DNA of 64,000 bases, counting the filler, from Basidiobolus ranarum (taxonomy: Eukaryota), in the NCBI GenBank assembly GCA_040143965.1. It is 20 parts of 20 records of this genome, joined end to end, with 100 filler letters (N's around TTAATTAATTAA, not from the genome) between each part and the next. Parts side by side here need not be neighbours in the genome. Positions count along the whole stretch, not along the records: positions 1 to 3,122 come from JASJQH010009589.1; 19 more parts are not named here. The stretch is one strand, 5' to 3'. Below the pieces are notes generated by a model. The model was not told the origin of the DNA. It saw only the letters and a list, made by a program, of their open reading frames with translations, and did not search any database. Below, piece after piece: positions 1 through 57,699 of this stretch; position 1 is the first letter of the stretch, and every line of letters begins with the position of its first letter. A program made the position numbers and the translations under genes.

Positions 1-345
1 ACGTTAGTTTGTTTACATCTTGACAAAACTATTAATGTCAACTTTCTACTCAATAAATAAATAAGTGAAAACCACCAATTCCTCTAATTCTCCAAACCAC
101 TTCCAACAGGCTCCCAAATACTTTAACAATATATAGCTTGGCATTTAGTTATCTTTTATTGAACTAAGATAATACCCATTATTCTCAATTGGAAGTTACT
201 TGGAATATTTTTACTAACTGAGTGTTAAAATTAGCATTACCTAAACATCTATATAGTCATATATAGCTTAGTACTTAGTTGTCTCATACTTCACTAAGAT
301 ATTATCCATTATTCTCACAAGAAATTTGCTTGACATATTTTTACC

Positions 346-627
346 TATTGAAATTATTTAGGGAGAAATATTGGTCTGGCCAGGATTTGAGCCTGTAACC
401 TCCTTCACTCTAGCAAGGTGATCTAATCACTGAGCTACCAGTCCTTGTATTCTATGCCTATATTGCTAGGGAACCTTAACCTAGTCTGTCAATGTATGAT
501 ACTTTGGCATTTCAGCTATAAAAGCAACTGATTGGCCTTAGACTTTGTGTTCAGATGCAGTCACCATACTCCATATTTTCCTCTTTGGGAATTACTGCTT
601 GTACCACAAGTCACCAGACTTTCAACA
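346..627 (-). mobile_element. Solo LTR (282 bp) containing a tRNA-like sequence, inserted in an LTR-A copy
   Basis: Ends read T(A)TTGAAA...TTTCAACA. TSD TTACC at 341-345 and 628-632. The empty site is visible in LTR-A at ~26001-26030. Second copy at 6445-6677. Confidence 0.88.
372..444 (-). ncRNA. tRNA-like cloverleaf inside the LTR (probably not a functional tRNA)
   Basis: GGACTGG-TA-GCTCAGTGATTAGATC-A-CCTTG-CTAGAGT-GAAGG-AGGTT-ACAGG-CTCAAAT-CCTGG-CCAGACC-A. A-box and degenerate B-box, several stem mismatches. Confidence 0.75.
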
Positions 628-1989
628 TTACCAACTTAAAAGTTCTCAGATATATAGATTTTTCAAACTTGGGTTAGAAGCCCCAAACTTGGCACACATG
701 TCTCTGAGAACTTTCTTAGCACATTATACATGTTAGTTTGCTCACATCTTGACCAAACTATCAATGTCAACTTTCAACTGAATGAATCATTAAATAAAAG
801 TTGTTAAAGTGCTTGAAAGCCTGTTGGAAGTTGAGCTTAGCCTTTGTATAGATGTAGCTAAATTACTCTTCCTATCCCCAAATTCAAATACATAGAATAA
901 CTAAATAATAAGCTATACAGTCATATATAGCTTAGTACTTAGTTATCTTATAATTCACTAAGATATTATTCACTATTCTCATAAGGAATTTACTTAGAAG
1001 TTCTCAGATATATAGATTTTTTCAAACTTGTGCTAGAAGCCCCAAACTTTGCACACATGTTCCTGGGACTTTCCTTAACACATTCTACATGTTAGTCTGT
1101 TTACATTTTGACAAAACTATAAATGTCAACTGAACACTCAATAAATCAATAAGTGAAAACCACCAATTCCTCTGATTCTCCAAACCACCTCCAACAGGCT
1201 CCAAAATACTTTAACATTTTCAACCAGTATTATGTTGGTGAATTCAAATCTTCACTATTGGCTGAAATTTTTGTGTTTTACTGATCCTCGGCTTGTAGTT
1301 TTAGCTCACTTTCCACTGACATTAAGCTGGCACACATGATACACATGCCATGAATACTTTAAAACTATTTATAGATTGATAGCAGAATTGGTGAGCTCAT
1401 ACGCATCTCCATAGAATGCTTATTCTAGATTCTCCTTTTGATTAAACATGTTTGTTAACAAATGATCACTTGATGAACCTTACTTTCAGCTCCACCATCA
1501 ATAAACTGCAGAACCAGCAGTATCCAATAATCAGCTCCAATACGACGATTTGGTTGGACAATAGAAATAGTGTAATTGGTGACGTGATGGTGGTGCTGTA
1601 GAATAAAGTTATTCGAATCTGATTCAGGATCTTTTAATTTACTTGAACCCAATCAAGGGTTTTACGATGTATTGGCACTGATCCTATCGAAGTATGATTG
1701 CACATCACGTCTATTGCTATTGACAACATATGCATATCACGTGATCACTAGTGTAAATAGTGTCCCCCATATAGGGCAGTTATTTGATTTGGATTTAATG
1801 AGTAATGACGCTTGGAGATTGTCAGGTAAAAGATGACTTATTCATTGCCACATCCAAGTGTGCTTGGTACAAACATACCGGTCAATTGCCTAATGCACTC
1901 CTAAGTATATGAGTAACTGGGGATGATTGTTTGGTATTTCATAAAGTGAATCATCTACTGAAGACATTGATTTACACTTATTTGCGTGA

Positions 1990-3122: not shown

Positions 3123-3222
3123 NNNNNNNNNNNNNNNNNNNNNNNNNNNNNNNNNNNNNNNNNNNNTTAATTAATTAANNNNNNNNNNNNNNNNNNNNNN
3201 NNNNNNNNNNNNNNNNNNNNNN
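3123..3222. other. Artificial contig linker N44-TTAATTAATTAA-N44 (first of 19; last at 60898-60997)
   Basis: The same 100-bp spacer, with stops in all six frames, recurs every ~3.2 kb. Contig lengths decrease monotonically. Confidence 0.99.
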
Positions 3223-4965
3223 CAGATATATTTTCAAGATCCCACAGAAATATTTACAAATGCAATACTTTCAGGCTTTGTATACAAATAAATGCCTAGA
3301 TGAGTGGCAATAGATGAGAGTCCTGGTAAAATAAGATGGTATAGACATATTTCAAGCATTTTCTTCATTGATTCAAGCTTTGATTATATCTCAAATGGCT
3401 CATTCATATTGAATTTTCTGCTACATTGCTGAGTATGTAGTATTGGAATGTTGTTGAATAGTAAGTTTACAGTGCCTAATGGGAATCTCTAGCTGCAGCT
3501 GATCCCCTTTAGGAACATATAAGCTTAGGCTTATGGCTAACCAAAAGTTTGATGACAGATTGACTATTTGATGAGTTGATATAATGAACATGGAGAAATC
3601 TGACTTTACTCTTGATGGTAAAATCATGGAGTTTAGTGGTGTATTGAGATAGTAGTAATGCATATGTACAGTAGAGTAAGCTCCATTGATTTGACAAAAT
3701 CTACAGCATGATAGTGCATTGTGCCTATAAAACCCTCCAAGTTTACTGATGGTAGGAGTGACACCAATAATTACAAAAATTTTAGCTTTAACAAAATATT
3801 AAACCATCTGAACCCCATTAGACAAACATTCAAACTGTCCATTCAAAGGCTCCAAGAAGCTATCTATAAGCACTGGTGTTTTAGGTCCACATATGATGGA
3901 TGGTATCAAGAAACTATGACTCTTATACCATTTGGAAGGAGGTAGATTTAAGTTAAGTAAAGTTATTGGCCAGCAAGCCTTTCCAAATGTATACTTGTTT
4001 AGTGAGAAACAATCCAGAGCCAGTGCAAAAGCATGATCATATGTGTTCTCAAAGAAACCTTGACTTTTCAGATTCTGGTAGTATAACCCATCAGGTATAT
4101 TGGTATTATCATCAGCTTTACAGTGAGTACTTTGGTAATGGATTAATGATCCATATTTGGGTGATTTCATCAAGACTTTAAGACAGGGAATCAATGGATT
4201 GTAAGCCTAATATGAATGTTTTTTACCTGATTCAGTGATTACCAATTATGTGCAAACAGTGCTTGACTTCAGGATTTCAGATTACCAGTGAAATCATAGC
4301 AATTATTTGGACCTGAAGGTAGTTTAATTACTGAAGGATTGTGAGTTGTAAAATTGACAAGTGTTTTTTCTTCTTGTACCAGGTCAGTAGCAAGCAACTG
4401 TTGCCAGTCAACAGTGGTAAAAGTGTAAGAAAACCATTCTACATGTGGTTGGTCAGATAAATTGAACTCTCCACTCTACAATAACAAAACTTGCTTCCTT
4501 TACTGCAAATGTCATGAGTCAACTAATGCTTGCCAATAATAAATAGTCTGTATCAAAAGCATTGTCTTCCTCTTCATCTTCTGATATACTACCGTCAGTA
4601 CTTGAATAGCCAAGATCAACATCAAGGATCATGTCCTCAAAGTTGTCAGGACTTAGTGGTTTGACCAAAGCTGCATTACTACCTATATCATTCTAGTCAT
4701 ATAACTGTGGTGACTCCATTGTATCTTGACTTTCAGCCATGTTACCAAAACTTTAAGGTAGAGCATAGCCATTGCACTCAGTGGGCAAAACTAAAGTTGA
4801 TTTTGTACACTTATTAAGGTTCATATTCACCAGGCTGTGTGCAGGTAGTAGCTTTGTACAGTGGCCATGGTTGTCACTATTTTTTCTATGAAGCCTCTGG
4901 TGTTCATTGCACAAGAACTTGTGACAGTAATAGCAGGGCTTCTTTAAATGATTGTGTTGTGGCAT
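3223..4965 (-). mobile_element. CACTA/En-Spm (Tnp2-like) transposase pseudogene
   Basis: LALDCF..CWPITLLNLNLPP..SIICGPKTPVLIDSFLEPL and downstream HYYY motifs. N-terminal CYYCH segment. Stops and frameshifts. Confidence 0.8.
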
Positions 4966-5645: not shown

Positions 5646-6344
5646 CCCTAACAGAAATTTGAGGATTGTTATTGTAGGAAAATGGTCACAATTTTAATCC
5701 ATTTGGGATTGACCATTTATTTACTGTCACAAAATTGTCAAGTTAGATTTGATTTTGATCAATTTTTTCAGTTTCAGGAGTGAAATTTCAAGATCTTGCA
5801 AAATAGTTGCAGATGATTGGCTAAAATATCACAGAACTATGGATCACCACATGTGAAAAAAATGTAACTCAAATTTTACACAATTACCACTTGAACGCTA
5901 GTTTGTCACCTTCAAAATCCCTAGTCTCTTTGATATATTCTCCTGAATATTGTTATACAGTTCTTCAAATCCAAGGTTTAACTCATGCCCAACACGAGTT
6001 GGATCAATATCTCCATCAAAGCCCACCAATATATTAACGTTGCTGAATCAACATTCTTCCAGCTATCTGGCAGATACCCTGCAATATTGTGCCACTCTGT
6101 ATTAAGTTCTTCCCAGTTATCTGCATGGTCAACACCAGACTGAATTTCATGCTGAATGTTCTTCTTCTGAAGCCACTTTCTGCATACTTGCACTGCATTT
6201 TTCCCTTCATACTTTTGAAAATACTCCTCAAGCACTTTGACTATTTTTGTATGTCCTTGTAGTGTGACACTACTGAGGGTGCTTTGCAGTGTTTGTGTGG
6301 CTTTTTGCTTGCCTTTACCTTTGGGACTAATTTCAACACTTTGA
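5646..6344 (-). mobile_element. Right end of the CACTA-like element (terminus CCCTAACAGAAATTT plus 3' accessory ORF)
   Basis: The same terminal sequence recurs at 7330, 9228, 16210, 35595, 37527, ~37844 and 39261. ORF EEYFQKYEGKNAVQVCRKWLQKKN. Confidence 0.85.
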
Positions 6345-6444
6345 NNNNNNNNNNNNNNNNNNNNNNNNNNNNNNNNNNNNNNNNNNNNTTAATTAATTAA
6401 NNNNNNNNNNNNNNNNNNNNNNNNNNNNNNNNNNNNNNNNNNNN

Positions 6445-6677
6445 GGGCCTCCTTCACTCTAGCAAGGTGCTCTAACCACTGAGCTACCAGTCCTTGTATG
6501 CTACGCCTATATTGCTAGGGAACCTTAACCTAGTCTGTCAATGTATGGTACTTTGGCATTTCAGCTTTACAAGCAACTGATTGGCCTTAGACTTTGTGTT
6601 TCAGATGCAGTCACCACACTCAATATTTTCCTCTTTGGCAATTACTGCTTGTACCACAAGTCACCAGACTTTCAACA
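6445..6677 (-). mobile_element. Second copy of the tRNA-containing LTR (cut by contig edge), inserted in a copia integrase
   Basis: Near-identical to ~395-627. Better D-arm GCTCAGTGGTTAGAGC. Ends TTTCAACA at 6677. Confidence 0.85.
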
Positions 6678-7329: not shown

Positions 7330-9228
7330 CCCTAACAGAAATTTGAGGATTGTTATTATAGGAAAACCATGACAATTTTAATCCATTTGGGGTTGACTGT
7401 TTACTTACCACCATAAAATTGTCAAGTTAGATTTGATTTTAATCAATTTTTTCAGTTTCAGGAGTAAAATTTCAAGATCTTGTAAAATATTTGCATATGA
7501 TTGGCTAAAATCTCAGAGAACTATGGATCAACACATGTACAAAAAACGTAATTCATATTATACACAATTACCACTTGAATGCTAATTGGTCACCTTTAAA
7601 ATCCCAAGTCCCTTTGATATATTCTCCTGAATATTCTTATAGAGTTCTTCATACCCAAGGTTTAGCTCATACCCAACATGAGTATGTACCAATATCTCCA
7701 TCAAAGCCCACCATTTTATAAAAGTTGCTGAATCAACATTCTTCCAGCTATCTGGTGGATATCCTGCAATATTGTGCTACTTGGTATGAAGTTCTTCCCA
7801 GATATCTGCATGGTCAAAACCAGACTGAATGTCAAGTTGAATGTTCTTTTTCTGAAGCCGCTTTCTGCATACTTGCACTGTGTTTCTCCCTTCATACTTT
7901 TGAAAATACTCCTCAAGCACTTTGACTATTTGCATATATCCTTGTAGTTTGACACTACTGAGGGCACTTTGTGGTGTTAGTGTGGCTTTTTGCTTGCCTT
8001 CAACTTTGGGGCTAATTTCAACACTTTGAAAAGTACTAGTTGAGGTTGGAGAGCTGTGAGTTTTATTTGCTGGCATTTTGGTTTGTTGAGAGATGCCAGG
8101 TGTGGGATATACTTCCAACTTTAGCACTCTTCCAACTGGTGAACCCAGTTCCATGGTGTAATTAATATTTTTTGCCAATGTATTTGACTCTGGGAATGCA
8201 GATCTTTGTAGTGGTGTGCAGAATTCAGTAAGCAGGACAGTAGAGCCTAAACTCACTGGCTCCTTTGCTTTTCCCTCATGCTTACTAACTTCCTGCTCCT
8301 AGAGTACTTCTTTAGCTGTTTTTCTTTCTTTCCAAGTTGATAGTTGAGTACATTTTTGTGATTTTTAATGAATAGGCCTATATTAGGCCAAATGCCATTT
8401 GCTTGCAAAAACCCAGGATAAGTCACATAAAATAAGTCAAGAACCTTCAGAGTAATGCCTGGTTTTTAGTTTTTCCACAATTGGCTCAAATCTGAGTGAT
8501 CTCAGGCAAGCTTCTGCTCTATTTCCAAAATGTTAAACCACTCATCATCAGAGCAAGTGAGGGCAGCTCTGACATTCAGAGTCTATTGTTTTGCAGGTTT
8601 TCTTATGATATCTACTTTCATGTGCCCAAGCAATTTTGGGTCATTGGAGTATTTTCATAAGTATGAAAGGAAAAACGCAGAGCAAGTATGCAGAAAGTGG
8701 CTTCAGAAGAAGAACATTCAACTTGACATTCAGGCTGGTGTTGACCATGCAGATATCTGGGAAGAACGCATTACTGAGTGGCACAATATTGCAGGGTATC
8801 TGCCAGATGGCTGGAAGAATGTTCATCCAGCAGCGTAAATACAATGGTGGGTTTTGATGGAGATATTGATACAAACTTGTGTTGGATATGAGCTAAACCT
8901 TGAGTATAAGGAACTCTATAAAAATACTGAAGAGAAAATATCAAAAAAACTAGGAATTTTGCAGTTGACAAATTTGCATGCAAGTGGTAAATGTGTAAAA
9001 TTTGAGTCATGGTTTTTTGCACATGTGTTGATCCATAGTTGTAGCAGACCTTAGCCAACAAGCACAACTATTTTGCAACATCTCGAAATTCAACTCCTGA
9101 AACTGAAAAAATTAATTAAAATCAAATCAAACTTGACAATTTTATGATGGTAAGTAAACAGTCAATCCCAAATGGATTATAATTGTGATGGCTTTCCTAA
9201 GATAACAATACTCAAATTTCTGTTAGGG
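7330..9228. mobile_element. Two right arms of the CACTA-like element in inverted orientation
   Basis: CCCTAACAGAAATTT at 7330 and its reverse complement ending at 9228. Strand switches near 8640. Confidence 0.8.
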
Positions 9229-9663: not shown

Positions 9664-10546
9664 AAGAAATCAAAATTAGCACTGATGCTACGAACTAGAA
9701 TAATTCAAGAACCATTTATCAACCAAGCTCAGAACCAGAGTTGAAGTCATTCAAGATAAAAAAGTCTCGAGGTCGGGGGATGTGAACTAAAGCTTGAATC
9801 ACTACATTGATATAGTCATTTGCTTTAACATTGTTTAACCCAACAAACCCTGAAAAACTAAATTAATAACATGTTGATTCCATCAATACCATAAAGAGAA
9901 CTTTACCAGGAAGATATTTGCGAGAATTCAAGTCATAAGAATATTCAAGATTCTTGTCTAGTTGTATAACTTGCTGCTTGGTGAATGTTGGATGCAACAC
10001 ATACTAGAAAATCGCGTAAACCACTAATATCATACATAAACTAATAAAATTATACTCAAAATACCTTGATATCATCTAATGATGAGTCAATGACTTCGTA
10101 TCCCTCAGGGAGACAATAAACCTATATGCCGCAAAAGCTGAAGTTAGATCTTGGTGGTAGATACTAATAAATAGCATGAAGTACCTTTAGAGTGTGTAAA
10201 TTGATGAAGACGTGATGATCTTCGTGTATACTATGGAAGTATGCATGTGAAGATTTTCCTCTACCTAAATCAAAACTAAATTAACTCGAGATAAAAAATA
10301 AGATGCCGACTTGATCTATTGTAAACCTTGGAAATATTTTCCGCATACAAGGCAACCGTAGACATTCAGATTAGAGAGAGAGACGGAGCATAGTTTTTCA
10401 AAATCAAAATCCAACATGGAGCGATTGATGGTGTCCAGGTATAGATCTTTGGATGAAGATTTGCCACTGGAATTGGCTACATCATTTTCAGCATTCGATA
10501 CTGAATCTATCTTTCTCCTCTTTGTTTCCGGTTCTGTAGTAGACAT
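9664..10546 (-). CDS. SAD1: U4/U6.U5 tri-snRNP-associated protein 2 (USP39/Sad1), 5' part, at least 5 exons, cut by contig edge
   Basis: Spliced product: DLYLDTINRSMLDFDFEKLCSVSLSNLNVYGCLVCGKYFQGRGKSSHAYFHSIHEDHHVFINLHTLKVYCLPEGYEV...YLPGFVGLNNVKANDY. GT-AG introns, first at 10326-10265. Confidence 0.95.
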
Positions 10547-10877
10547 CACTTCTTTTGTAGACACCAAGTATAAAAGAATATGCTGTAAAGTTTAAAGAGT
10601 GGTGGATTTTGTGTCCCAGATTACACAAGAAATAATTCAATTTGTGTATATATCAATGAATACACTATTTCCGATTTTCCGAGGTATTCCGAATCCCAGG
10701 TGACTGCTCCAAGATATTAGAAAAAATCGATTTATGCTAGATCTGATCATATCACATTCATTTCCGCAAACTTTTTTTTCTTTTTTAAATATTGTAGTCA
10801 ACAGCATCGATAAAATTGATAATTCAAGCTGTAACTTGAGGTTCGCATTTGATATATACATTTTTTTTATCTTTAAT

Positions 10878-11599
10878 ATGTCTACGCAAAACATTTGGCT
10901 TGCCGCTAGTGATGGTAATTTACAAGAAGTTAAAGAATTCTTAGAAGCTGGAATCAGTGTTGACGCTAAAGATGAAAATGGGTATACTCCTTTGTAAGTC
11001 TACCATTAAACATATCTTTAGTTGACTTGTCCAAACCTGACTAATTGACTATCTTTTAAGACATGCAGCTGTATCATACGGATATACCGAGTTGGTCCAA
11101 TTTTTGCTAGATAGTGGTGCCAATGTTAACATTACTGATTCTGATGGTGATACCCCTCTTCATGTCTGTGAAAATTTCGAAGTTGCCGAACAGCTCGTTA
11201 AAGCAGGTGCTGATATTCAACTGCAAGATGACGAGGGCAAGACGGTAAGCATTTTTTGTTTTTTATAGGCTGGAGTTTCTCTATATACTGATAGAGTCTT
11301 ACATACAATAGGCCATTGATACAGCGGAAGAAGAAGGTCACTATGATGTAATGGTTTTCTTACAGGAGTATCCCAATAATGTAACTACTCTGCCTCTACC
11401 TGAAGAAGCTAAAGAAGAGCTTTCGAAAAAATTACAACCTGTTGATGTTGATGGAACAGCTTTCATGGAAAAAGCCACTGAAGTATTGCGCCAAGCTGAT
11501 CTTCAAGGTTTGGATCGTGACGCCGAGCTTCAGAAACTAGTAACTGAAATGGTTCTCAACCAGTTATCTAATGGAGCTTCGTATGAAGATGATGATTAA
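10878..11599 (+). CDS. Small ankyrin-repeat protein (3 exons: 10878-10993, 11061-11244, 11312-11599)
   Basis: NIWLAASDG..KDENGYTPLHAAVSYG..TDSDGDTPLH..DDEGKTA. Canonical GTAAG..AG introns keep the frame. Confidence 0.92.
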
Positions 11600-11938
11600 A
11601 CAAAACTTACAAATTCGTATACACTCGTTTCCTGATGGCGTAGTAATTACACACATCCTAAATCATACTTTATCCCTAATAAATTTGAATATAATCTCTC
11701 AACTCTAAAACATCATTTCTCCCAGAGAAGTTTACTTTTCTTCGCTTTACTTGATTTCGTCATTGAAACTAGATTGATGATATGTATTTATGCTCAACAG
11801 CACTCTCACAACTTGGTATACAAAATTTTCTAAGGATTATCGTGTGCACATTGAAAGTGAAAGCATACATGGTATAAATAAGAAATGGAATGCTAAAAAA
11901 AATGCTCGAGAATTATCCTGGTAAATAGTGGAGAAGGC

Positions 11939-12782
11939 TTAGTTTTTACGAATGTCCTTAAGCATATCCTCAACATGGTTCATGAATTCGCTTGTGGTGA
12001 CATAGTGGGAACGGTTCATCTGTTTACCATGAATAGCCAAAGCCAAATCCTTGGTCATTTTTCCATTCTTATCCACAGTATCAATACAAGCGCGCTCTAA
12101 ATCGTGAGAGAACTTGAGAAGAGCGGCATTGTTATCGAGTTTGGCACGATGAGCTAAACCACGGGTCCATGCAAAGATAGAGGCGATGGGGTTAGTAGAG
12201 GTTTCATTTCCTTTTTGATGTTCCCGGTAATGTCTGGTAACAGTTCCGTGTGCAGCCTCAGCTTCTAAAGTTTTACCATCTGGAGTGACAAGGACTGAAG
12301 TCATCAAACCTAAAGAACCGAAGCCTTGGGCTAATATATCAGATTGAACATCTCCGTCATAGTTCTTTGTGGCCCAGACAAAACCACCGCTGGACTTGAG
12401 AGCTTGAGCAACCATATCATCAATGAGACGATGTTCGTACCAGAGTTTCTTTTCCTCGAACTTGTCCTTGTAATCCTTTTCGAAAATGTCTTGGAAAATA
12501 TCCTTGAAACGTCCATCGTATTTCTTGAGAATAGTATTCTTTGTGCTTAGATAGAGAGGCATACCCTTGCTCAAAGCCATTTGGAAGGAACTATGAGCGA
12601 ATCCAGTAATGGAATCATCATTGTTGTACATACCCATACCAACACCAGCACCCTTAAAATCATAAACGACCCATTGTTGGGGCTTTTGAGAGGGATCTTC
12701 TGGAGTAAAGGTCATCTCGAATTTACCTGGACCATTTACGACAAAATCAGTTGCGCGATATTGGTCGCCAAAAGCATGTCTG
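11939..12782 (-). CDS. NADP-dependent isocitrate dehydrogenase (IDP/IDH1-2 type), 3' part
   Basis: [77 protein letters not shown]. Confidence 0.97.
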
Positions 12783-12882: not shown

Positions 12883-13330
12883 CCCACCGATGCACACATT
12901 TTCCGGGGACCTTCCTAAACATATTCTACATGTTGACATTGTTAAAGTATTTTGGGAGTCTGATGGAAGTCGTTTGGAACCCCAGCTGAATTTATGGTTC
13001 TCACTTATTGATTTATTGAGTAGGGAGTGTAGGTAGATAGTTTTGTAAGGAGTTAAACAAGTAAACATATAGAATGTGCTAAGGAAGGTCTCAGGAGCAT
13101 ATGCGCAAAGTTCAGGGTCTCCAGGACAAGTTCGAAAAAATCTGTATATCTAAGGGTGATATCTTTGTGAAATATGGAATACTTAAATATTAAGCTATAT
13201 GTAACTATATAGATGCTAATTTCCGCAGATTTGTCTACTCCTTGACAAAAGTATGAATGTCACTTACACTGCATCAATTCTTCTGGTTCTCCAAAGCACT
13301 GCCAATAACTCCCAAAATACTTTCACACTA
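12883..13330. repeat. Degraded LTR-A fragments in both orientations
   Basis: Matches to LTR-A segments (GGGACCTTCCT..ACATATTCTACA; CTCCCAAAATACTTTCACA). Confidence 0.65.
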
Positions 13331-14838
13331 GTCTCATTCTAACTTCAATATATTATACAAGATGTCTATGTGGAGGTGGTGGAAGCAACTCTCCCTTATA
13401 GAGTAATAATTAAGGCCTACAGAGAGCAAAACAATATCCTGCAATATTAGCTAACTCTGTATGAATATTAGCCAGCTATGTGCTACCCCTATAGTGGTAG
13501 CCAACTAGTAATTGGCCATTTGCACAACTATGCTATTATTGAGGATGTCTTCTAGTTAGTATATATACTTAGGAAATTCTCATTGAGTTAGTGCCTAGAT
13601 CATTCCATACGGCATTTGGTTTCTCAGTATTAATAAGTTACATACATCTATATTTAACCGATTCCACACCTGAGCCTACTTCTGTGTCATTATCTATGCC
13701 CACAAAACGATTGGCCAAAGCTTTCCAGCCAATATAGGATAGGAATGTACAAATGAGCTTTTAACAAATACAGGCAACATATAGATTCTACTGACACATC
13801 AGGAACTTGAGCAAAAAACCATGACAATTCATTTATGCATTAACTGGCCAGTTAAACTGTCATTAAGTATATTCCACTATGCCAAGACAATCACCTAAGA
13901 TGACAACCACAATGAATCTCAAGTGGCGCAACAATCACCTGGGTAACATGTAGAAGTATAAAAATCACTGAGTTTTCACCTGGTCGATTGCATTGCAGCA
14001 TTTTTATTACTACGCAATGCAAAATTGACATGGTTAAGTAGCAATGGAGCCCATTAGAGAAACACCAAGACCGTGATTTTATAACTCTACCTGCAGCTCG
14101 GTATGGTAAGATCTAGAATCTTGATAAACATTTGTATCAGTAATTCCCTATCTCTGATTTATATACACGCTGTGCCGCAGCATTGGCGCTAAACCTTAAT
14201 CTGCTAATTTTGGTCACTATTAAGAATTAAAAATAACTAGATTCCAAATAATCTAGTCAGTAACGAATTTACTTGTAGTTCACTCACCTGGCCACTTATT
14301 TGTCATTAGTGTAATGGCAAGATATTTGTAACATCCAAATGAACTGGTTTCCCAACCTCTCTTTATTCAATTCAGTATATGGCATCTTATTTATTATTGG
14401 TAAAATGTCCAAGTGATAAAGACGCTCTTTGCGATCTTGTCAAAATCTCTTCAGCTCGGTTAGATAAATGTACATAATTCCAAAGAATGTTTCCACAAGT
14501 ATGCAAACTTGAATATAAGTTACCCTTCGTGGGAGCTAGTATATGTGCGTTTTAACTTGTAGATTAATCAACATGTGTTGCCGCTCACTCGGAGTAATCA
14601 CAGTGATCAGAGCAGTCTGGTTGACCATGACAAGAGATAGTGAGTATAATATCTATATACAGGATACAAGATAACAAGGGCAATTATCTTGGTTGGTAAT
14701 TACCTACCTAGCTCATTGTATTCGGTGACTTAAAAATCCGGGATACGAACTTTTTATGGTAGATAGGCAACAACTCAATTCTTTAGAAGAATACAAAGGT
14801 TTTTATTTCTTAAATTATCCTGTAGTTTGATTTGGAAG

Positions 14839-15999
14839 CTATCTCATCATGTAATTCACAGAGCCACACCTCCATCCTTTACCATGTTTCTTACTTACCA
14901 CCAAATACATATCATTTTGCTCAATATCGGCATCTGTTAAAGTTAACGTAGAGTGAACATATCGGATACGAGGCAATTTTTGGGTTGCATTTATGACGTC
15001 TGCGCTGGTTACTCCTTTTAATGAAACAAGATGGATTTCCGTAACATGCAGCATGTATCGCTGTAAGAGGGCAGATAATGTCTCCCCAGAGATTTCAAAC
15101 CCTGTAAAGCGATACATGCATTTACGGCTGATTTCCTTTCTAGGTACTACGTGGCTCAGACATTCAGTAGGTACATCTGTTCTGAGTATCTCATTCAAAG
15201 TCAAGGTTTGATGGTACTTTCCAATGTTGAGATTGAGATGTTCCAGTCGTGGGCATGAATCCAATAAGTGGAATTGGAAGAGGGTGGCTGATTCTCCTAT
15301 CAGTATCAGGCTCTTTAAGTACAGCAACTCCCAGTCCCAGGTCCATGCCCAACAAGGTGAGTCGGATGGCCGTATTGGAGAAAACGAGCCATTTTCGAAA
15401 AGCAAGATAGTTTCTAATAACGGCGAGTGTTTGAGAGAGGCAAAATTGAATTTGTAACATATTCCGTTAAGCAATGAGATTCTTCGAAGATTTGGTAGTC
15501 TAAGCACCGGGCCAAATTCAGGGCTACTACCACATTCCTTACTATGGCTGATTAAGCGAAGTTCTTTCAAAGACGGGCAGAAGTTGAGTGATTCAAGGTC
15601 AAACAAAGTAAAGTCCACAAACTGTATTTGGATCTTTACAAGGTTAGGTAGCAACCAATCCCAGTTGAGAGGTACACGACAGGGCTTACGGAAAAGTGTT
15701 TCTTCTACATCAATAACTCTGATTGTATTCTGGAAAGCATAGATAATATCATTAACAACACGGAGGGCAGAAACTTTCTGACATTTCGCGTATACCTCTC
15801 GAAGGGGTGGTAGTTTGATATCCAGCGTACTGCTTAAAGAGGAGTCAGAGCCTACAAGTAAATCACGCTTTTCTACTGCCCACTTGAAACTATTTGATCT
15901 GGATGTACAGAAACGGATCTTTTCCAATTTAGGACAATGCTTAAATAAAGATTCTGAGTCCCGGTTTGGTACTTTCACTTCATCTCTCATGAATGGGGC
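14839..15999 (-). CDS. Leucine-rich-repeat (RNI/F-box-associated-like) protein, 5'-truncated
   Basis: Open frame of 383+ aa to the contig edge. Repeated CPxLxxLxL motifs and W-x-W-D-W-x-L-x-x-L blocks. CpG retained. Confidence 0.7.
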   Translation of the reverse strand, partial: APFMRDEVKVPNRDSESLFKHCPKLEKIRFCTSRSNSFKWAVEKRDLLVGSDSSLSSTLDIKLPPLREVYAKCQKVSALRVVNDIIYAFQNTIRVIDVEETLFRKPCRVPLNWDWLLPNLVKIQIQFVDFTLFDLESLNFCPSLKELRLISHSKECGSSPEFGPVLRLPNLRRISLLNGICYKFNFASLKHSPLLETILLFENGSFSPIRPSDSPCWAWTWDWELLYLKSLILIGESATLFQFHLLDSCPRLEHLNLNIGKYHQTLTLNEILRTDVPTECLSHVVPRKEISRKCMYRFTGFEISGETLSALLQRYMLHVTEIHLVSLKGVTSADVINATQKLPRIRYVHSTLTLTDADIEQNDMYLVVSKKHGKGWRCGSVNYMMR

Positions 16000-16099: not shown

Positions 16100-16210
16100 A
16101 AAATCAAATCTAACTTGACGATTTTATGACGGTAAGTAAACGGTCAATCCCAAATGGATTAAAATTGTGATGGTTTTCCTACGATAACAATCCTCAAATT
16201 TCTGTTAGGG
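16100..16210 (+). mobile_element. Right terminus of the CACTA-like element, CpG-retaining copy
   Basis: Ends AAATTTCTGTTAGGG. Has CG where other copies have TG or CA. Confidence 0.85.
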
Positions 16211-25743: not shown

Positions 25744-26239
25744 CTATAGAGAATAAGTTTATTGACTTAACTTATTGTTCTACAGAAGACATGATTGCTG
25801 ATATATTAACCAAACCATTAGCTAGACAGAAATTTGAGAAATTTAGACCTTTATTAGGATTAGTTTATATGACTATTTAGTTGAGGGAGAGTGTTGAAAT
25901 TAGCATTGCCTAAGCACCTATATAGTCATATATAGCTTAGTACTTAGTTATCTTGTAATTCACTAAGATATTATCAATTATTCTCAATCGGAATTTACTT
26001 AGAATATTTTTACCAACTTAGAAGTTCTCAGATATATAGATTTTTCAAACTTGTGCTAGAAGCCCCAAACTTTGCACACATGTTCCTGGGACCTTCCTTA
26101 ACATATTCTACACGTTAGTTTGTTTACATCTTGACAAAACTATAAATGTCAACTTTCTACTCAATAAATCAATAAGTGAAAACCACCAATTCCTCTAATT
26201 CTCCAAACCACTTCCAACAGGCTCCCAAATACTTTAACA
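25744..26239 (+). mobile_element. Copia 3' end with complete LTR-A (25892-26239)
   Basis: DMIADILTKPL, PPT AGTTGAGGGAGAG, TGTTGAA...TTTAACA. Confidence 0.93.
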
Positions 26240-26853
26240 AATCAAAGTTGTATTTCTTTAGCAAAAAATCCCAAATTTCATGCTAGAAGTAAGCACATTG
26301 ACATTCAACATCACTTTGTTAGGGATGCTATTGAGAATAAGCATGTCCAACTAGAGTACTGTCCAACTGAGGACATGATTGCTGACATCCTTACTAAATC
26401 ATTACCCAAGTCAAAATTTGAAGAATTAAGCTATAAGTTAGGATTATGATATAAGAATATTTAGTTGAGTGGGAGTGTTGAAGCTTATTGTCTTTATCAT
26501 ATTTGTTATCTCTATCTTTATACACCTAACTATTTAATATATCACATATAAGTTAGGTAACATTACTTAGTCAAATATCACTTAGCTGAAAATTGGAACA
26601 TGTATTATATATATGTGTGAATAATGTGAGAATTAGCAATTCCATATTGGAAATTTCAAACTCAACCAAATTGCCCCAAAGATAGCTCATTTTACTCCCA
26701 CAGATATTCTGAACACAACCCCAGTGTTATTTTTCTGTATTTCTGCAAAAATGTATAAAAGCTTTATTTCTGGACAATAAATAATTATCCTACAAAGCTA
26801 TTCACAACTCCACTTTTCTCAAGTTCCTCCAAACAGCCCATAATTTCCCAATA
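26240..26853 (+). mobile_element. Copia 3' end with LTR-B (26476-26853)
   Basis: KFHARSKHIDIQHHFVRD..DMIADILTK. PPT AGTTGAGTGGGAG. Confidence 0.9.
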
Positions 26854-35376: not shown

Positions 35377-38300
35377 TTTGATGGAGATATTGACACAAAC
35401 TTGTGTTGGGTATGAGCTAAACCTTGGGTATGAAGAACTCTATAAAAATATTGAAATTTCACTCCTGAAACTGAAGAAATTGATTAAAATCAAATCTAAC
35501 TTGACAATTTTATGATTGTGAGTAAACAGTCAACCCCAAATGGATTAAAATTGTGATGGTTTCCTACAATAACAATCCCTAAATTTCTGTTTGGGTGAAA
35601 AAAGTACACCTGCTACATAGGGTGGTATTTTAGATATAGCCCATCAATATCATCATCTGATTCTGAGACAGTGTCACAGATAAGTCATCAGGAAATTGAC
35701 CAGATATTTCCAGTAATGGATGGCAATTTTGGTTTATCATGAGCTGTTTCTAAACAATTTCTTTACACAATGTTCACCATCTGAAAATTCAAATGCCATC
35801 CAAGAAGCATTCAAAATCAAATTCAAAATTGGCTTCCAAGCCAAAACCTGCTAGCACAAAAGGAAAAAAACCAGCAAGAACATAGGACTATATTGATGAG
35901 CAGTCTATCAATTCACTATCCACTTTGTAAGGCATTAACATGCTGTAAACTAACTTAAGTAATGATGAAGCATTAATCAATATATGTAATGTGTTCCTTT
36001 GCCACAATATTGCAAGTGAAGAGATTTTGATCCCAAACCACATAGTAAATCAATAGTTGAGCAAATTTTGACCAAAACACTTTCAAAACCATGAACTTCC
36101 AAAATGGCTACTTTGCCCACTATTGAACAACCCTCTGCAAAAAATTTGGATAAAACTATTACAACCAGGGAATTGCAGGCAGAACATCATAATAATTTAT
36201 ATGCAATCATAAGTAAAAACTATGAAGTTGCTATACAGGGCATGATAAGTAATAGCATTGCAATATTGCAATCAGTGCAGCATTTGTAAGCAGCTAGTCA
36301 ACAGTGAGAGAGTCACTCAGTTATGATACAAGACCTTCAGATTTCTGTACTTAAGCTGCAGCAACATGCTGCTCCCTCCATCCTTTCTCATTTGGGATTT
36401 CAATCAATCCTACACCATACATATGAACATCACCATGACAATCTAGCTGAGCAGAATATATGCTGGACCACTAAACCTACACCACAACCCAAAATTACTT
36501 GGGCTCATGAAAATGGAAATCTCATAAGAAAACCGGCAAACCAAAAGACTCTAAATGTCAGAGCTGCCATCATTTGCTCTGCTGATGAGTGGTTTAACAT
36601 TTTGGAAACTTTGCAGAATGTTGCCCAAAATCACTTGGATTTGAGCCAATCATGGAAAAGCCAAAAACCAGGCATTACTCCAAAGGTTTTTCACTTATTT
36701 CATGTAGCTTATCCTGGATTTTTGCAAGCAAATGGCAATTGGGTTAGTATAGGCTTAATCATGCAACATCTCAGAAATGAAGACAATTATTGACTTAGAA
36801 AAGAACAAAAAGCAGCTAAAGAAGTACTTAAGGATCAGGAAGTTACTAAACCCAAGGGAAAAGCAAAGGAGCCAATCAGCTTAGGCTCTACTGTCCCACC
36901 TATGTAATTCTTCCCAACATTATAAAGAACTGTATTTCCAGAGTCAGATATACTGGAAAAAAAGCCTCATTTTATAATGAAACCAGGTACACCAGTTGAC
37001 AAAGTGCTAAATTCAGAAGTTTATCCAACACCTGGCACCTCTCAGCAAGCCAAAACATCAGAAAATAAAACCTATGGCTATCCAACCTCAACTGGTACTT
37101 TTGAAATGTTGAAATTAGTCCTAAACTTAAAGGCAAGCAAAAAGCCACATAAATACTGCAAAGCACCCTCAGTGGTGTCACACTCCAAGAATGTATGAAA
37201 ATAGTAAAAGCTCTTGATGAGTATTTTCACAAGTATGAAGGGAAAAATGCAATGCAAGTATGCAGAAAGTGGCTTCAGAAGAACAACATTCAACTTGACA
37301 TTCAGTCTGGTGTTGACCATGCAGATATCCAGGAAGAACTAAATACAGAGTGACACAATATTGCAGGGGATCTGCCAGATCTTGAAATTTCACTCCTGAA
37401 ACTGAAAAAATTGATTAAAATCAAATCTAACTTGACAATTTTATGATGGGGAGTAAATGGTCAATCCCAAATGGATATAAACTGTGATGGTATTCCTACA
37501 CTAACCATCTTCAAATTTCTGTCAGGGCTTATAGTTTCTGTTGTTTTGTTTTATGTATCAAAGGACTGCAATGGAAACAGTGACAAGATAAAATCTTAGA
37601 TGAAGATTGTGTGGTTACAACTTCAAACATAGCTGAAGAAATCAAAAAGGATGTAAAGGTGTGTCTTCCTGATACTGCAAAGAGGATTAGTAACATGATA
37701 GATCTAAGACAAGAGTTACTGGAGTTATTGATAAATTTGTACTTGTCAGTGCCCAAACCTGGCAATAAAAGTTGGTGATAGTTGAGCTAAAAAGGTTATA
37801 AAAATGGGTGAACAAGTGATCTGTTATCCTTATCTACATACAACCCTAACTAAAATATGAGGATTTTTATTTTGGGAAAACCAACACAATATTAATCTAT
37901 TTTGAATTAATTTTTTACGTACCACCATAAGATTGTCAAGTTAGATTGAATTTACTTACTTTTTTCAGCTTCAGGACTGATATATCAAGATCTCACAAAG
38001 TAGTTGCACATGATTGGCTACAATCTCTGGCAACTTTGGATCAACACATGTGCAAAAAAGGTAGCTCAAATTTTACACATTTACCACTTGTATGCTAATT
38101 TGTCACCTTTGAAATCCCTAGTTTCTTTGGTGTATTCAACTGAATATTTCTAGAGTTCTTTATACCCAAGGTTGAGCTCATATCTAACACAAGTTTGTAT
38201 CAATATCTCCATCAAAGCCCATCAATGTATTGAGATTGCTGAATCAACATTCTTTCAGCTATCTGGCAGGAACCCTGCAATATTGTGCCACTCTGTGTTT

Positions 38301-39261
38301 AAGTTCTCACCCAATATCTCCATGGTCAACACCAGACTGAATGTTAATGTGAATTTACTTCATCTGAAGCAACTCTCTGTATACTTGCACTAAGTTTTTC
38401 CCTTAATCCTATTATAAATACTCCTAAAGCACTTTTACTATTTTTATAGATCCTTTAAGTGTGACACTACTAAGGGTGCTTTGNNNNNNNNNNNNNNNNN
38501 NNNNNNNNNNNNNNNNNNNNNNNNNNNTTAATTAATTAANNNNNNNNNNNNNNNNNNNNNNNNNNNNNNNNNNNNNNNNNNNNAAAGTTAAAGTCAAGCA
38601 AAAAGCCGCCCAAAAACCACAAAGCACCATTGTTAGAATCACACTACAAGGATGTACAAAAATAGTCAAAGTGCTTCAGGAGTCTTTTCACAAGTATGAG
38701 GGGAAAAACACAGTGCAAGTATGAAGAAAGTGGCTTCAGAACAAGAACATTCAACTTGACATTCAATCTGGTGTTGATCATGCTGATATCTGGGAAGAAC
38801 TTAATACAGAGTGGCACAACATTGCAGGGTATCTGCCAGATAGCTGGAAGAATGTTGATTCAGCAACATTAATACAATGGTGGGCTTTGATGAAGATATT
38901 GATACAAACTTGTGCTGGGTATGAGCTAAACCTTGGGTATAAAGAACTCTATAAAAATATGCAGGAGAATATATCAAAGAGACTAGGGATTTCAAAGATG
39001 ACAAATTAGCATTCAAGTGGTAATTGTGTAAAGATTGAGTTATGTTTTTTGCACCTGTGTTGATCCATAGTTCTCTGAAATTTTAGCCAATCATGTGCAA
39101 CTATTTTGCAAGTTCTTGAAATTTCACTCTTGAAACTGAAAAAATTTATTAAAATCAAATCTAATTTGACAATTTTATGACAGAGAGTAAACAGTCAATC
39201 CCATATGGATTAAAATTGTGATGGTTTTCCTATGATAACAATCCTGAAATTTCTGTTAGGG
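35377..39261. mobile_element. Multiple right arms of the CACTA-like element across two contigs; longest accessory-ORF copy at 35793-37380 (+)
   Basis: Termini at 35595, 37527, ~37844 (inverted) and 39261. ORF ..TLPTIEQPS..AAPSILSH..VRAAIICSADEW..YPGFLQANGNW. Confidence 0.82.
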
Positions 39262-46199: not shown

Positions 46200-47007
46200 T
46201 CCAGTGGAAGAGAGCTAATCAGCCATAGTTTTTATCCAATTTATATGTTTAAGCTTAGAATCATCAGAATTCACCTGAATTGAGAATAATTTTCACGTAA
46301 GATATAGCCTATCAGCCAGACTTTTAGTCTCATATAGTCCCTCAAGTGTTTCCCAAGGATTTTGGATGTTTTTGGCTGATTGTACGTTCCTCAGTTGAGA
46401 GTCTCTGAGATGTAGACAAATTGTAGAGAGTGCTGTTCTCTGCTTCTTATGAAATGCAAGGATAGCTTTTGGTGGTCCCTTTGGCTCTATTACCTCTCTT
46501 GTAACAAATCCCCAAAGGTCCTTGTTTTCTAGCACCATTTGCATGTAGAACTTTCCAAGGTGCAAGTCTTCTCCATCAAAATTCTCTGTATATGAATAAA
46601 CATTGGTACTAGTACTGGTAGACACTCTTTCAACAACTAGCTTGGGGCTCATAACCTGATAAAAGTGTTTAGGGGATTTGGAAGTGTTTTGGACAAGATT
46701 TGGCTTTATGAATTAGACACTTAAGTTTTATTGTATTCAATATGTCCTATTAATAGTTTACTATGAAATAGGACTATTGGACATACTTGGATCATAACCA
46801 ACACTCCTGTTAAGCATGGGTAAAAATTGGAGGTGATTTGGAGAGGATTTGAGAAAATAGTGAAAATTGGAAAAGGGATCTAATTGATATTCCTTTCAAT
46901 TTGAGCAATAAACACATGTTTTTGAATTACAGAAATGAATACTAACTAATCCAAATATGAATAAAGTAACTACTAAATAATGAGTTGCTATTTACCTAAT
47001 TTCAACA
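46200..47007 (-). mobile_element. Copia 5' end: LTR-D (47007-46657), PBS GGTTATGAGCCC, gag
   Basis: TGTTGAA...TTATCA LTR. PBS complementary to the tRNAiMet anticodon arm. Gag KFYMQMVLENKDLWGFV. Confidence 0.9.
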
Positions 47008-48097
47008 TACTTTGGTATTGATTAGATGAGCAATATTTGGGTGATTTGATCAAAACTTTAAGACTAGGAATCAATGGTATGTAAGCAAAATATGAGCAAT
47101 ATTTTTCTGATTTAGTAATTGTCAATGGTGTGCAAACAGCACATGACTTCAGGTTCTTCATATCACTGGTAATTCTAACTAATTTCACTATGCCAAGTTT
47201 GTGTTCTAAAAATTTCAATGCCATTCAAAAAGCATTTTAAATCTTAACCAAAATTGGTTTTCAAGCATAAGCCTGCTGGCACAAAAGGAAAAAAACAAGC
47301 AAGAACAGAGAATTTAAGTAATGAGCAGTTTAGCACTGCACTATCCACTTTTAAAGGCATCAACTTGCTGGAAACCATTAATGAACTTACCAGATGTGTT
47401 CCTTTTTGGCTGTGGTGCAAGTGATGAGAATGTAGTCCCCAAATTACATAGTAAATCAATACTGGAGCAAAGTTGAACAGAGACATTATGAAAACAATCA
47501 ACTTCCATATTGGCTATCTTGTCAACTTTTAAACAACCCTCAATAGAAAACTTGGATATATTAATTACAACAACCAAATCTCAGGCAGAATGCCTTAATG
47601 ATTTGTATTCAATCATAAGTAAAAGCTACAAAGTTGCTATACAGCCCATGACAAGCAATAATGCTGTAGTATTGCAATTAATGTAGTGTTATGAAGCAAC
47701 TAGTCAACAATTAGAGTCATTTGGCAATGATACAAGACTTTTAGAAAGCTGTATCACGGTAATGATTTGTATGCAATCATAAGTAAAAACTATGAAGTTG
47801 CTATACAGGCCATGATAAGCAATAACGCCACAATATTGCAATTAATGCAGCGTTTGGAAGCTACTAGTCAACAGTTAGAGAGTCACTCAACAATGATACA
47901 AGACCTTCAGAATGCTGTACTTGAGCTACAGCAACATGCTGCTCCCTCCATCCATTCTCATACAGGATTTCAGTCAATCCCACACCAAACATATGAATGT
48001 CATCGTGACAATCTAGCAGAGCAGAATGTGTGTTGGACCATTAAGCCTACACAGCAACCTGATATTGCTTGGGCACATGAAAGTAGAAAACTCATAG
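47008..48097. mobile_element. CACTA-like fragments (transposase piece and two accessory-ORF pieces)
   Basis: Matches 4126-4300 and 35790-36530. Confidence 0.78.
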
Positions 48098-54962: not shown

Positions 54963-54964
54963 CC

Positions 54965-57699
54965 CGGGATCTTCCTTAACACATTCTACACATTAGTTTG
55001 TTTACATTTTGACAAAACTATATATGGCAACTTTCTACTCAATAAATCAATAAGTGAAAACTATCATTTCCTCTAATTCCCCAAACCACTTCCAAAAGGC
55101 TCCCAAATACATTAACAGGTTATTAGCCCCAAGCTTGCGCTCTCTGTAATGTCTACTTCTCAAATCTATGGAACTTTTCCCTCATCTGAAAGATTGGATG
55201 GAACAAATTATCAAGTTTGGAGAATTAAAATGAAACTGCTGCTGAAAAAAAAACCTTGGGACACTGTTGTAGGAGAATAAAACAATGCAAAACTATCTGA
55301 TATCAAAGTTTTACCCCAGGTTAAAAAAGAACAAATGCCTTCAACACATTTTGTCTTAATGTTGAAGTCAAATTGCTAATTCAATGTTCAAGAGCTAAAA
55401 CTGCCATGAAGGTATGGAAAACCTTGGAAGATACCTACCAAACATGTTCTGCTGCCAACAAGATGTCTCTAAGAAGACAATTCTTTAACTTAAAGATGAA
55501 GCCAGGAGAAGACATCAAATCACTAATTAATAGAGTCACTTTTTAGTGGATGAAATGAAATGCATTGCAGTACCTACTACTGATCAAGCTATCATAGTTA
55601 CAGTCCTGAAGAGCTTGCCACATGAGTTTCAGAGCCTTGTAATGGCTCTGGAAGCAAGAACTGAAAATTTGACCTTAAATTATGTATTTGGCGGACTTCT
55701 GGATGAAGATTTATACAAATCAGGATCCAACTAAAAGAATGAAGAAAATGCTTTAATAGGCTATGGGAAACCTTCCTATAAAGGTCAAAAACACTTTAAG
55801 AAGAAAAGTAACACATTCTGTGATTATTGTTGAAGAACTGGCCATTCAAGCAAAGATTGCTTTAAAAGAATTGTAAAAGAAGAAAAACATTCTGAATCTG
55901 GAAATTTGGTTAGAGCAGAAGATCACTTGTTCATTTCTGCTCTATCTATGACTACCAACAAGTATTGTCAGATGTGGTATATTGATTCAGGAGGTTCCTA
56001 ACATTTCACAATTGAGAAACAATGGTTTATGGATTTTGAAGAAAACCCAATTAGAAAGGTTTTCATGGGAGATGACCACACATTGGATGCTGTTGGAATG
56101 GGAACAATTCAAGTCAATTTACCTGGAGCTTCTGAAGAAAAAGTATATAATTTTAAGGATGTACTACATGTTCCAGATATTACCAAGAATTTAATATTTG
56201 TATGCAAGGCCATCTCAGAAGGGCTAAAATTCAATTTTGATAATTCAGGATGCACCATCACTGATCAAAATGGGAATTATTTAGCTTTGGGAAAAATGGA
56301 TCAGAACTTTTACAAACTAACATATGATCCAAGAGATTTATGTGTAAATATAAGTTGTACCAAGTAAGAAACTATAAATATTTAATCACATTTATGGATG
56401 ATTATACAAGATACACTTGGGTCTACTTTACGGAAAGAAACCAAGAAGCTCTCTCTATCTTTAGAGATTTTAAAGCACTGGTCAAGACTGAAACTGGAAC
56501 TTAAATCAAGAAAATACATACTGATAATGGTGGATAATATACTTAAACACTATTTAAGCACTTTTGCAAAATTCATCAAATTAAGCAAGAAACCACTGCC
56601 CCCTATTCACATCAACAAAATGGACTTGCTGAAAGAGCTATCAGGACTCTAGTATATATGGCAGGATCTATGATAAATGCTCAAAATTTATCTCACAAAT
56701 TTTGGGTGGAATTTGTTGCTACAGCTCTGTATCTGAAGAATAGGAGTTGCACTAGAAGTCTGTCTAACTCTACACCATATCAAACTTGTTTGTAGTAAAC
56801 CTGATGTAAAACGTTTGAGGATCTTTGGATGTATTGCCTATGTCAAAATTGTGACCAAAAACTGGTCTAAATCTGATCCAAAAAGTGAGAAATGCATACT
56901 TCTGGATTATTGTACTCAAACTAAGGCCTACAGACTCTTTGATAACAAAATTTCCAAGTTAATCAAGTCCAGGGATGTTTTGTTTAATTCAAATGAAACA
57001 TTTTCACCCAAAACAACCTCAGATGATAACAAAAATCAATATTCCCCTTATCTAACCATTCAAATTGATTCAAAACAAAACAATGAAGAAAATAGCACTC
57101 CTGTGGACCCTTCAACTGAAAGTTTGCCTACTGTAGTGCACAATACAATGCCAGAAGTTGTAGTACCTTTGTCCCAAACCAGGAGATCAAATTGGATTAG
57201 AAATAGCCCTGATTACTATATCAATGAGTCTCAAAATTGGGCCTATGCCTGCACAGCTTGGATACATGAACCCCAGACTGTAAAAGAGGCCCTGAATGGC
57301 CCTCAAACAAAAATTTGGAGATCTACACTGGCTGATGAGTACCAGGCTTTGATTGATAATCAAACTTGGATTTTAACCAACTTACCTGATGATAGAAAAT
57401 CAATTGGCTGCTGATGGGTGTTTAAAGTTAAATACAACTCTGATGGCAATATAGAAAGGTACAAGGCTAGACTAGTAGCCAAAGGCTATTCCCAAACACC
57501 AGGAATAGATTATACAGAAACTTTTGCTCCTGTAGCAAAGTTTAATTCAATTAGATTGATTTTAGCAATTTCAGCTAAATATCAGTTTATTATACATCAA
57601 ATGGATGTTAAAACTGCCTTTTTGAATGGTGAGCTTGCTGAGGAGATCTATATGGACCAGCCAGATGGATTTGTGGACCCAGAAAACCCTAAAAAAGTT
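54965..57699 (+). mobile_element. Copia element (family A): partial 5' LTR to 55117, PBS, gag-pol pseudogene into RT
   Basis: PBS GGTTATTAGCCC at 55118. CDYC..TGHSSKDC knuckle, [41 protein letters not shown]. Many stops. Deletion near 56380. Confidence 0.95.

Follow-up and report, generated by a model that had tools for sequence, protein, structure and literature searches.

A tRNA-bearing 282-bp insertion in Basidiobolus ranarum: a probable solo long terminal repeat of a Helenus-type retrotransposon

What kind of mobile element carries a tRNA-like sequence inside a short, sharply bounded body, and with whose enzymes could it have moved? The question is raised by a 282-bp unit that interrupts a repeat, here called LTR-A, in the genome of Basidiobolus ranarum, an early-diverging fungus outside Dikarya. 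The unit was studied in a 64-kb window, that is, the whole stretch of DNA analysed, along which all coordinates are counted. The window is made up of 20 pieces of ~3.1 kb, which are separate small contigs joined by linkers; therefore, adjacency across a linker carries no meaning. In our view, the unit is probably the solo long terminal repeat (LTR) of a Copia-mobilised LTR retrotransposon with a tRNA-derived module in its LTR, an element of the Helenus type (TRIMp3). The positions of the features are collected in Table 1.

The comparison of the filled site with the empty sites was clean: the unit, which is mobile, was inserted precisely and is flanked by a target-site duplication (TSD) of 5 bp. 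The empty sites are two uninterrupted paralogues of the host repeat, each with one TTACC, at 26010-26014 (+) and 44719-44715 (-), and at both of them the BLAST matches of the left and right flanks overlap by exactly 5 bp. A third paralogue (960-1030) has a deletion that spans the insertion site and is hence uninformative. On the minus strand, which is also the strand of the tRNA-like module, the unit reads 5′ TGTTGAAA ... TTTCAATA 3′, and 7 of the 8 bases of its terminal inverted repeat are complementary. Reading of the sequence revealed no A-rich or simple-repeat tail on the unit; internal mini-LTRs were not found within the 282 bp, where there are only two short direct repeats at chance level. 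A preliminary description of this DNA had reported the unit with a perfect TTACC duplication and an empty site in another LTR-A copy; the extent, the sequence and the duplication proved to be as described, and two such empty sites exist.

The window contains a second copy of the unit, which is cut by a contig end within the tRNA-like part. The two copies are 95.2% identical over 230 aligned columns; counted from the alignment, and leaving out the last three contig-edge bases, they differ by ten substitutions and one single-base indel. Copy 2 stops at the same TGTTGAAA boundary (...TTTCAACA) as copy 1, and the flank is unrelated. The other boundary of copy 2 is hidden, as the copy starts at the contig end. 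The flank encodes an integrase-like peptide that is interrupted mid-domain, and the Pfam matches of the integrase fragments beside copy 2 are all below threshold. A paralogue of this peptide was found at 56376-56498 in the Copia of contig 18 (49% identity), itself with rve-family matches under the Pfam cut-offs. Judging from this flank, copy 2 is nested in a degenerate Copia integrase region. It was also considered whether copy 2 is the 3′ LTR of the adjoining Copia. This was rejected: the junction cuts the integrase-like peptide mid-domain, and the paralogous Copia continues from 56376 into rve-family (below cut-offs), SH3_retrovirus and RVT_2 matches.

The host repeat gives an indication of the machinery that may have been used. 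From the coding regions next to it, LTR-A is the LTR of a resident autonomous Copia element: its reference copy comes after a pol C-terminus and a purine tract, and in another place a primer-binding site (PBS) adjoins the 5′ LTR-A end and is followed on the same contig, downstream of 55118, by Pol_BBD, rve-family (below Pfam cut-offs), SH3_retrovirus and RVT_2 matches. The Copia superfamily makes 5-bp TSDs. The first 8 nt of the unit, TGTTGAAA, are identical to the 5′ end of LTR-A and to that of another Copia LTR, and the window contains 15 occurrences of this word, where 7.1 would be expected (0/100 shuffles reach 15). At the 3′ ends, comparison of the final 20 nt of the unit with those of LTR-A gives a score of 7, the shuffles scoring -3.1 +/- 2.7 and reaching 7 in 5/2000 cases; this 3′-end likeness was judged by the shuffle test, the MAFFT alignment being ambiguous because LTR-A holds two similar motifs. 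Over the full lengths, in contrast, there is no similarity (local score 12, null 13.1 +/- 2.1). Thus, LTR-A shares with the unit the 5′ 8 nt and a similar 3′ stretch of ~20 nt and has no likeness to it outside the termini, which is as expected of an element relying on the same integrase class. It also differs from the unit in having no tRNA-like part. Several Copia families are present in the window (25744-26500; 54963-55130; 46640-47010), and one of them, the LTR-A Copia with the PBS GGTTATTAGCC, may be an autonomous partner of the unit. TSDs of 5 bp are also made by the Copia families linked to Helenus (Kojima 2024, PMC10886601). The LTR reading is supported, then, by the Copia-type termini, the 5-bp TSD and the single occurrence with TSDs on both sides.

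Two further observations on LTR-A were made. Contig 1 (1-1216) is an end-to-end mosaic of LTR-A pieces, covering LTR-A positions 221-348, 37-130, 1-290 (with the insertion) and 27-348, which suggests nested or rearranged Copia LTRs. In addition, another Copia 3′ end is nested directly after the reference LTR-A, with a pol C-terminus at 26240-26476 and then an LTR starting TGTTGAAG.

The tRNA-like module is located 183 bp from the 5′ end of the unit and 26 bp from its 3′ end. In a search of the whole window against 4227 Rfam families, RF00005 (tRNA) matched positions 444-372 (-) over its full length with 35.0 bits (gathering threshold 29; E = 0.0013). Nothing else in the window reached the gathering score of an Rfam family, and even with E values of up to 5 no other tRNA match, and thus no other tRNA-like LTR, came to light there. 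Copy 2 yields a truncated tRNA match of 22.2 bits and has a canonical D arm and A box, with two D-arm positions differing from copy 1. With default settings, ARAGORN found no tRNA in the window, and the module of copy 1 was called as tRNA-Ser(AGA) only at a lowered threshold. When copy 1 was given the two D-arm states of copy 2, a 73-nt tRNA-Ser(AGA) was returned at default settings. Because these states restore the default call, the ancestor of the family was more tRNA-like than copy 1. Stretches resembling box A and box B are recognisable, the A-box-like stretch having been called against the general A-box consensus: the sequence TAGCT of box A is present in both copies, and the YGG part is TGG in copy 2 and TGA in copy 1.

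It should be noted that the module does not decode. A genuine tRNA-Ser has a long variable arm, and a Ser anticodon on a body with a short variable arm cannot belong to one. Here, the variable region has 5 nt, 4 of the 21 model pairs in the Rfam alignment are non-standard (one per stem), and the 73 nt do not take a cloverleaf shape in their minimum-energy fold, whose energy is no better than that of shuffles (z = 0.13; 109/200 at least as good). The preliminary description had correctly given the anticodon position as AGA (Ser), with no long variable arm, with stem mismatches and with only three T's after the module, three being the longest T run of the 26-nt tail. Its tRNA-length cloverleaf with A and B boxes at minus 444-372 stands as an Rfam tRNA match with both boxes, but not as a minimum-energy fold. 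As a whole, its view of a short LTR with a built-in tRNA-like module agrees with the precise insertion, the 5-bp TSD, the Copia-LTR-type termini and the two boxes, A and B, close to the 3′ end.

Elements of this construction have been described. Helenus comprises TRIMs (miniature retrotransposons with terminal repeats) with tRNA-like sequence in their LTRs (Kojima 2024, Biology 13:119, PMC10886601), and the preliminary description was right to recall it as a fungal precedent with 5-bp TSDs. Among fungi, 113 families come from rusts (Pucciniales), and further ones from three Agaricomycetes, Agaricus, Coprinopsis and Amylostereum (PMC10886601). Fungal Helenus elements have 5-bp TSDs, solo LTRs are frequent, and the tRNA-like parts, with the conserved boxes A = TRGCY ... 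YGG and B = GGTTC, are mostly unable to decode (PMC10886601). They inflate the number of predicted rust tRNA genes by hundreds, tRNA-Ser-AGA being among the types (PMC10886601), and their LTR consensus lengths are 106-284 bp (PMC10886601, supplement).

The unit has much in common with these elements. Two Helenus traits are found in it, tRNA-derived sequence inside an LTR-like unit and a 5-bp TSD combined with LTR termini. Its length of 282 bp falls inside the published range; it too starts TGTTGAAA and ends TTCAATA, like several of the published consensus sequences; it occurs as a solo LTR; and its pseudo-tRNA is Ser-AGA, a type that Helenus inflates in rust predictions. In both, the tRNA-like part holds its A and B boxes close to the LTR 3′ end and is followed by a short tail, which in the fungal Helenus consensus sequences, read by eye, is ~25 nt long. 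In the available Helenus consensus file, TGTTGAAA occurs 10 times, always forming the opening 8 nt of an LTR consensus, and TTCAATA occurs 18 times, mostly at LTR ends among the 10 matches listed. For the word GGTTATGAGCCC the file has 48 matches, and in 10/10 of those listed an internal part begins with it; a Copia with a PBS of the GGTTATGAGCC type coexists with the unit in the genome sampled by the window. One 8-nt word of the unit has 3 occurrences in the file. Most alike, by eye only and in the T arm, acceptor and tail, are the LTRs of Helenus-4_PGr and Helenus-4_PSt (274 and 284 bp). The plant TRIMs named Cassandra follow the same principle, with a small-RNA gene with an internal Pol III (RNA polymerase III) promoter in each LTR of a short non-autonomous element (as summarised in Kojima 2024, PMC10886601). 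However, Cassandra is a plant lineage and carries 5S rRNA sequence, whereas the unit carries a tRNA-derived sequence; Rfam gave no 5S match in the window, neither above the gathering score nor among matches with E up to 5.

On the reading of the unit as a Helenus-type LTR, we suggest the following course of events. A full element would have one such LTR at each end and, between them, a short internal part bearing a PBS and a polypurine tract (PPT); as a TRIM, it would be shorter than 1000 bp in all. If Cassandra and Helenus are taken as models, box A and box B of the 5′ LTR would be recognised by TFIIIC and Pol III, and the genomic RNA would start at the tRNA-like +1, so that on this Pol III model 627-445 would be U3 and 444-346 would be R plus U5. 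The weak T3 runs would allow transcription by Pol III to continue out of the 5′ LTR, and the RNA would cross the short internal part into the 3′ LTR; equally, these T3 runs may be what is left of a terminator that has decayed. Reverse transcription and integration would then be carried out in trans by Copia proteins, giving the 5-bp TSD, and recombination between the LTRs would finally leave the solo LTR. We infer Pol III drive of the unit from the analogy; for Helenus in general, Kojima regards Pol III transcription as unproven (PMC10886601).

Several points weigh against the assignment of the unit to a Helenus-type element. The ends described earlier as 8-bp inverted repeats of the TG..CA type are inverted, with the one mismatch given above, but they run TG..TA: the 3′ end is TA, not CA, in the only copy in which it is seen. 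There are only two copies in the window, one of them truncated, and BLAST with word size 7 found no further ones there; paired LTRs, an internal domain, a PBS or a PPT of the unit's family were likewise not found in the window. Copy 1 has no YGG in its A box, and its box B, the only one seen, is GGCTC, one base off GGTTC. No T run longer than three is present in the 26-nt tail, and the first T4 on this strand lies 142 nt past the module, in the flank, whereas a run of four or more T's follows the tRNA-like part in the fungal Helenus consensus sequences available, as read by eye. Finally, 0/12 unit-specific motifs (10-13 nt) were found in the available Helenus consensus file, and homology to Helenus proper is not supported; 13 motifs had been typed from across the unit, two of them nested and thus counted together, and the result excludes near-identity only. 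As far as such motif look-ups go, the unit is none of the published Helenus families. The lack of a motif match does not exclude Helenus membership, because Helenus is defined by structure and is thought to have arisen several times (PMC10886601).

Other explanations have to be weighed against this assignment. The unit could be an ordinary Pol II-driven Copia-type LTR, of an autonomous or large non-autonomous element, that captured a tRNA gene or a tRNA-derived short interspersed element (SINE), the module being a passenger without promoter function. The whole LTR evidence, that is, the empty sites and the termini, fits such an LTR equally well; the tRNA-like part is decayed and has no terminator; and 'not a few' Repbase LTRs hold tRNA-like pieces, only some of them in TRIMs (Kojima 2024, PMC10886601). 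We nevertheless regard it as rather unlikely, given that box A, in copy 2, and the greater part of box B have been retained and that the AT-rich stretch in 445..627 that is the sole TATA-like stretch upstream is not the same in the two copies. Moreover, neither copy is adjoined by a Copia internal region of its own, copy 1 having TSDs on both sides and copy 2 lying within an integrase motif. The unit could also be a SINE, or a composite retroposon of the non-LTR class, moved by a LINE (long interspersed element). A tRNA-derived module in which boxes A and B are present would fit this, and tRNA-derived SINEs (SINE2) usually share with the unit the inability to decode and the lack of a terminator of their own. 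SINE2 elements, however, begin at their 5′ end with the tRNA head, depend on LINE machinery and have TSDs of variable length, whereas in the unit 183 bp precede the module within a 5′ boundary common to both copies. The tRNA-like +1 lies 183 bp inside this boundary; therefore, RNA initiated there by Pol III could not contain all of the unit. Together with the inverted termini of Copia-LTR type, the 5-bp TSD and the missing A-rich or simple-repeat tail, this makes a SINE extremely unlikely.

A miniature inverted-repeat transposable element (MITE) with 8-bp terminal inverted repeats, a 5-bp TSD and a chance tRNA pseudogene inside would be in keeping with the 7/8 complementary terminal bases and the fixed TSD length. 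Short inverted TG..CA ends are, however, the norm for LTRs, and the termini of the unit match the ends of resident Copia LTRs. Nothing specific favours a MITE, and the only DNA-transposase match among 14 open reading frames (ORFs) scanned is Transposase_21 (tnp2), a type that we take to be CACTA-like, with 3-bp TSDs and different ends; we consider a MITE very unlikely. That the unit is a repeat carrying a working tRNA-Ser(AGA) gene could be proposed from the Rfam score above gathering and from the ARAGORN call at the lowered threshold or with the D arm of copy 2. It is scarcely credible in view of the Ser anticodon beside a 5-nt variable region, the 4/21 broken pairs, a fold no better than shuffles, the negative ARAGORN result at default settings and the lack of a T4 within 141 nt, i.e., of a terminator. 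Most Helenus tRNA-like parts have likewise been judged non-decoding (Kojima 2024, PMC10886601).

The kind of element to which we assign the unit is thus known, and it is the host that may be new for it. Basidiobolus lies outside the fungal taxa listed in the available text of Kojima (PMC10886601), and among the literature matches listed (titles and abstracts) no such element was reported in Basidiobolus or other early-diverging fungi. These fungi may simply be unscreened, because Kojima's screen began with Repbase LTRs and relatives of genomes holding matches (PMC10886601). The new family in this lineage that the preliminary description considered possible is plausible in view of the host and of the 0/12 motifs, but the kind of element had already been described. 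We tentatively propose, as a serious possibility, that Basidiobolus harbours its own lineage of Pol III-promoter-bearing TRIMs, which would have arisen independently of rust Helenus when a short LTR captured a tRNA or SINE module, and which would parasitise Copia with a PBS of the tRNA-iMet anticodon-loop type. If this is true, LTR elements would have captured Pol III promoters repeatedly within the fungal kingdom, and tRNA-bearing LTRs would inflate the tRNA-gene predictions of such genomes. If full-length copies exist, small-RNA-promoter TRIMs would be extended from Basidiomycota to an early-diverging fungal lineage, with an added case for repeated origin and for matching to Copia partners via LTR termini and PBS type. 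The unit opens no new kind of mechanism, and it is of concern mainly to annotators of transposons and tRNA genes: LTRs of this kind can be called as tRNA genes, and a less decayed D arm is enough for ARAGORN to report tRNA-Ser(AGA).

Table 1. Features of the 282-bp unit, its host repeat and the surrounding window (positions along the 64-kb window).
Feature	Position	Strand	Evidence or remark
282-bp mobile unit, read as solo LTR	346..627	-	Two empty sites and a second copy at 95% identity
TSD TTACC, left copy	341..345	.	Single in empty sites
TSD TTACC, right copy	628..632	.	Single in empty sites
183-bp region upstream of tRNA-like module, starts TGTTGAAA (627-620)	445..627	-	In both copies
73-nt tRNA-like module, decayed; anticodon position AGA (411-409)	372..444	-	Rfam RF00005
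A-box-like stretch TAGCTCAGTGA; TAGCTCAGTGG at the same place in copy 2	427..437	-	
B-box-like stretch GGCTCAAATCC	383..393	-	
26-nt tail after tRNA-like part, U5-like, ends TTTCAATA	346..371	-	Longest T run 3
Second copy of the unit, cut by contig end within tRNA-like part	6445..6677	-	BLAST, alignment
Host LTR-A copy (LTR-A positions 1-290), unit inserted at LTR-A positions 119-123	223..799	+	
Reference LTR-A, 348-bp 3′ LTR of autonomous Copia, starts TGTTGAAATTAG	25892..26239	+	Empty site 26010-26014
PBS GGTTATTAGCC directly after 5′ LTR-A end (...TTAACA, 55117/55118), then gag	55118..55128	+	
PBS GGTTATGAGCC of second Copia family, after its LTR	46656-46646	-	
Third LTR	47007-46809	-	
tnp2 (Transposase_21) transposase fragment, over two adjacent ORFs	3421-4206	-	
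Other sites of the 71-bp stretch (examples)	16140-16210; 39191-39261; 35526-35595		
Linkers (examples)	3123-3222; 6345-6444		

The general composition of the window is as follows. There are 38 runs of N, each of exactly 44 N, arranged in 19 pairs; the single pair inspected surrounds TTAATTAATTAA. The pieces shrink slightly in length from the start of the window to its end. The GC content is ~35%. Over the whole window, the observed/expected ratio is 0.29 for CpG, 1.31 for TG and 1.27 for CA, so that CpG is strongly depleted while TG and CA are in excess, as would fit decay driven by methylation. Within the 282-bp unit, copy 1 has no CpG and copy 2 has one (at 6504).

The long intronless ORFs of the window encode a P-type ATPase with HMA domains, an isocitrate dehydrogenase, an ABC transporter, a GDS1 winged-helix protein, the tnp2 transposase and pieces of Copia pol. 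The isocitrate dehydrogenase fragment is 95% identical to a sequence from Basidiobolus meristosporus CBS 931.73, the next named match having 80%. ORF 14839-15999 (-) on contig 5, a piece that also holds an LTR-A copy, has no Pfam domain. Its 12 matches are the window's own protein and 11 B. ranarum proteins (best 80%), mostly named F-box domain-containing. Some B. ranarum contigs encode several of these relatives, an arrangement pointing to a family expanded in this lineage. The two protein comparisons, which concern the pieces 9664-12782 and 12883-15999, identify the organism as a Basidiobolus species and speak against a rust fungus as the source.

Two other repeated sequences were found. ORFs at 5978-6343 (-), 7777-8298 (-) and 8500-8838 (+) form a multi-copy family without a Pfam match, which has the common stretch ...KVLEEYFQKYEG...VCRKWLQKKNIQ... 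and is present on two contigs, twice on contig 3 in opposite orientations; it may represent a transposon-borne protein. Beside a Copia Pol_BBD-like region, a 71-bp stretch at 7330-7400 is repeated at 7 other sites with 83-93% identity and is either a conserved piece of Copia pol or a short interspersed repeat.

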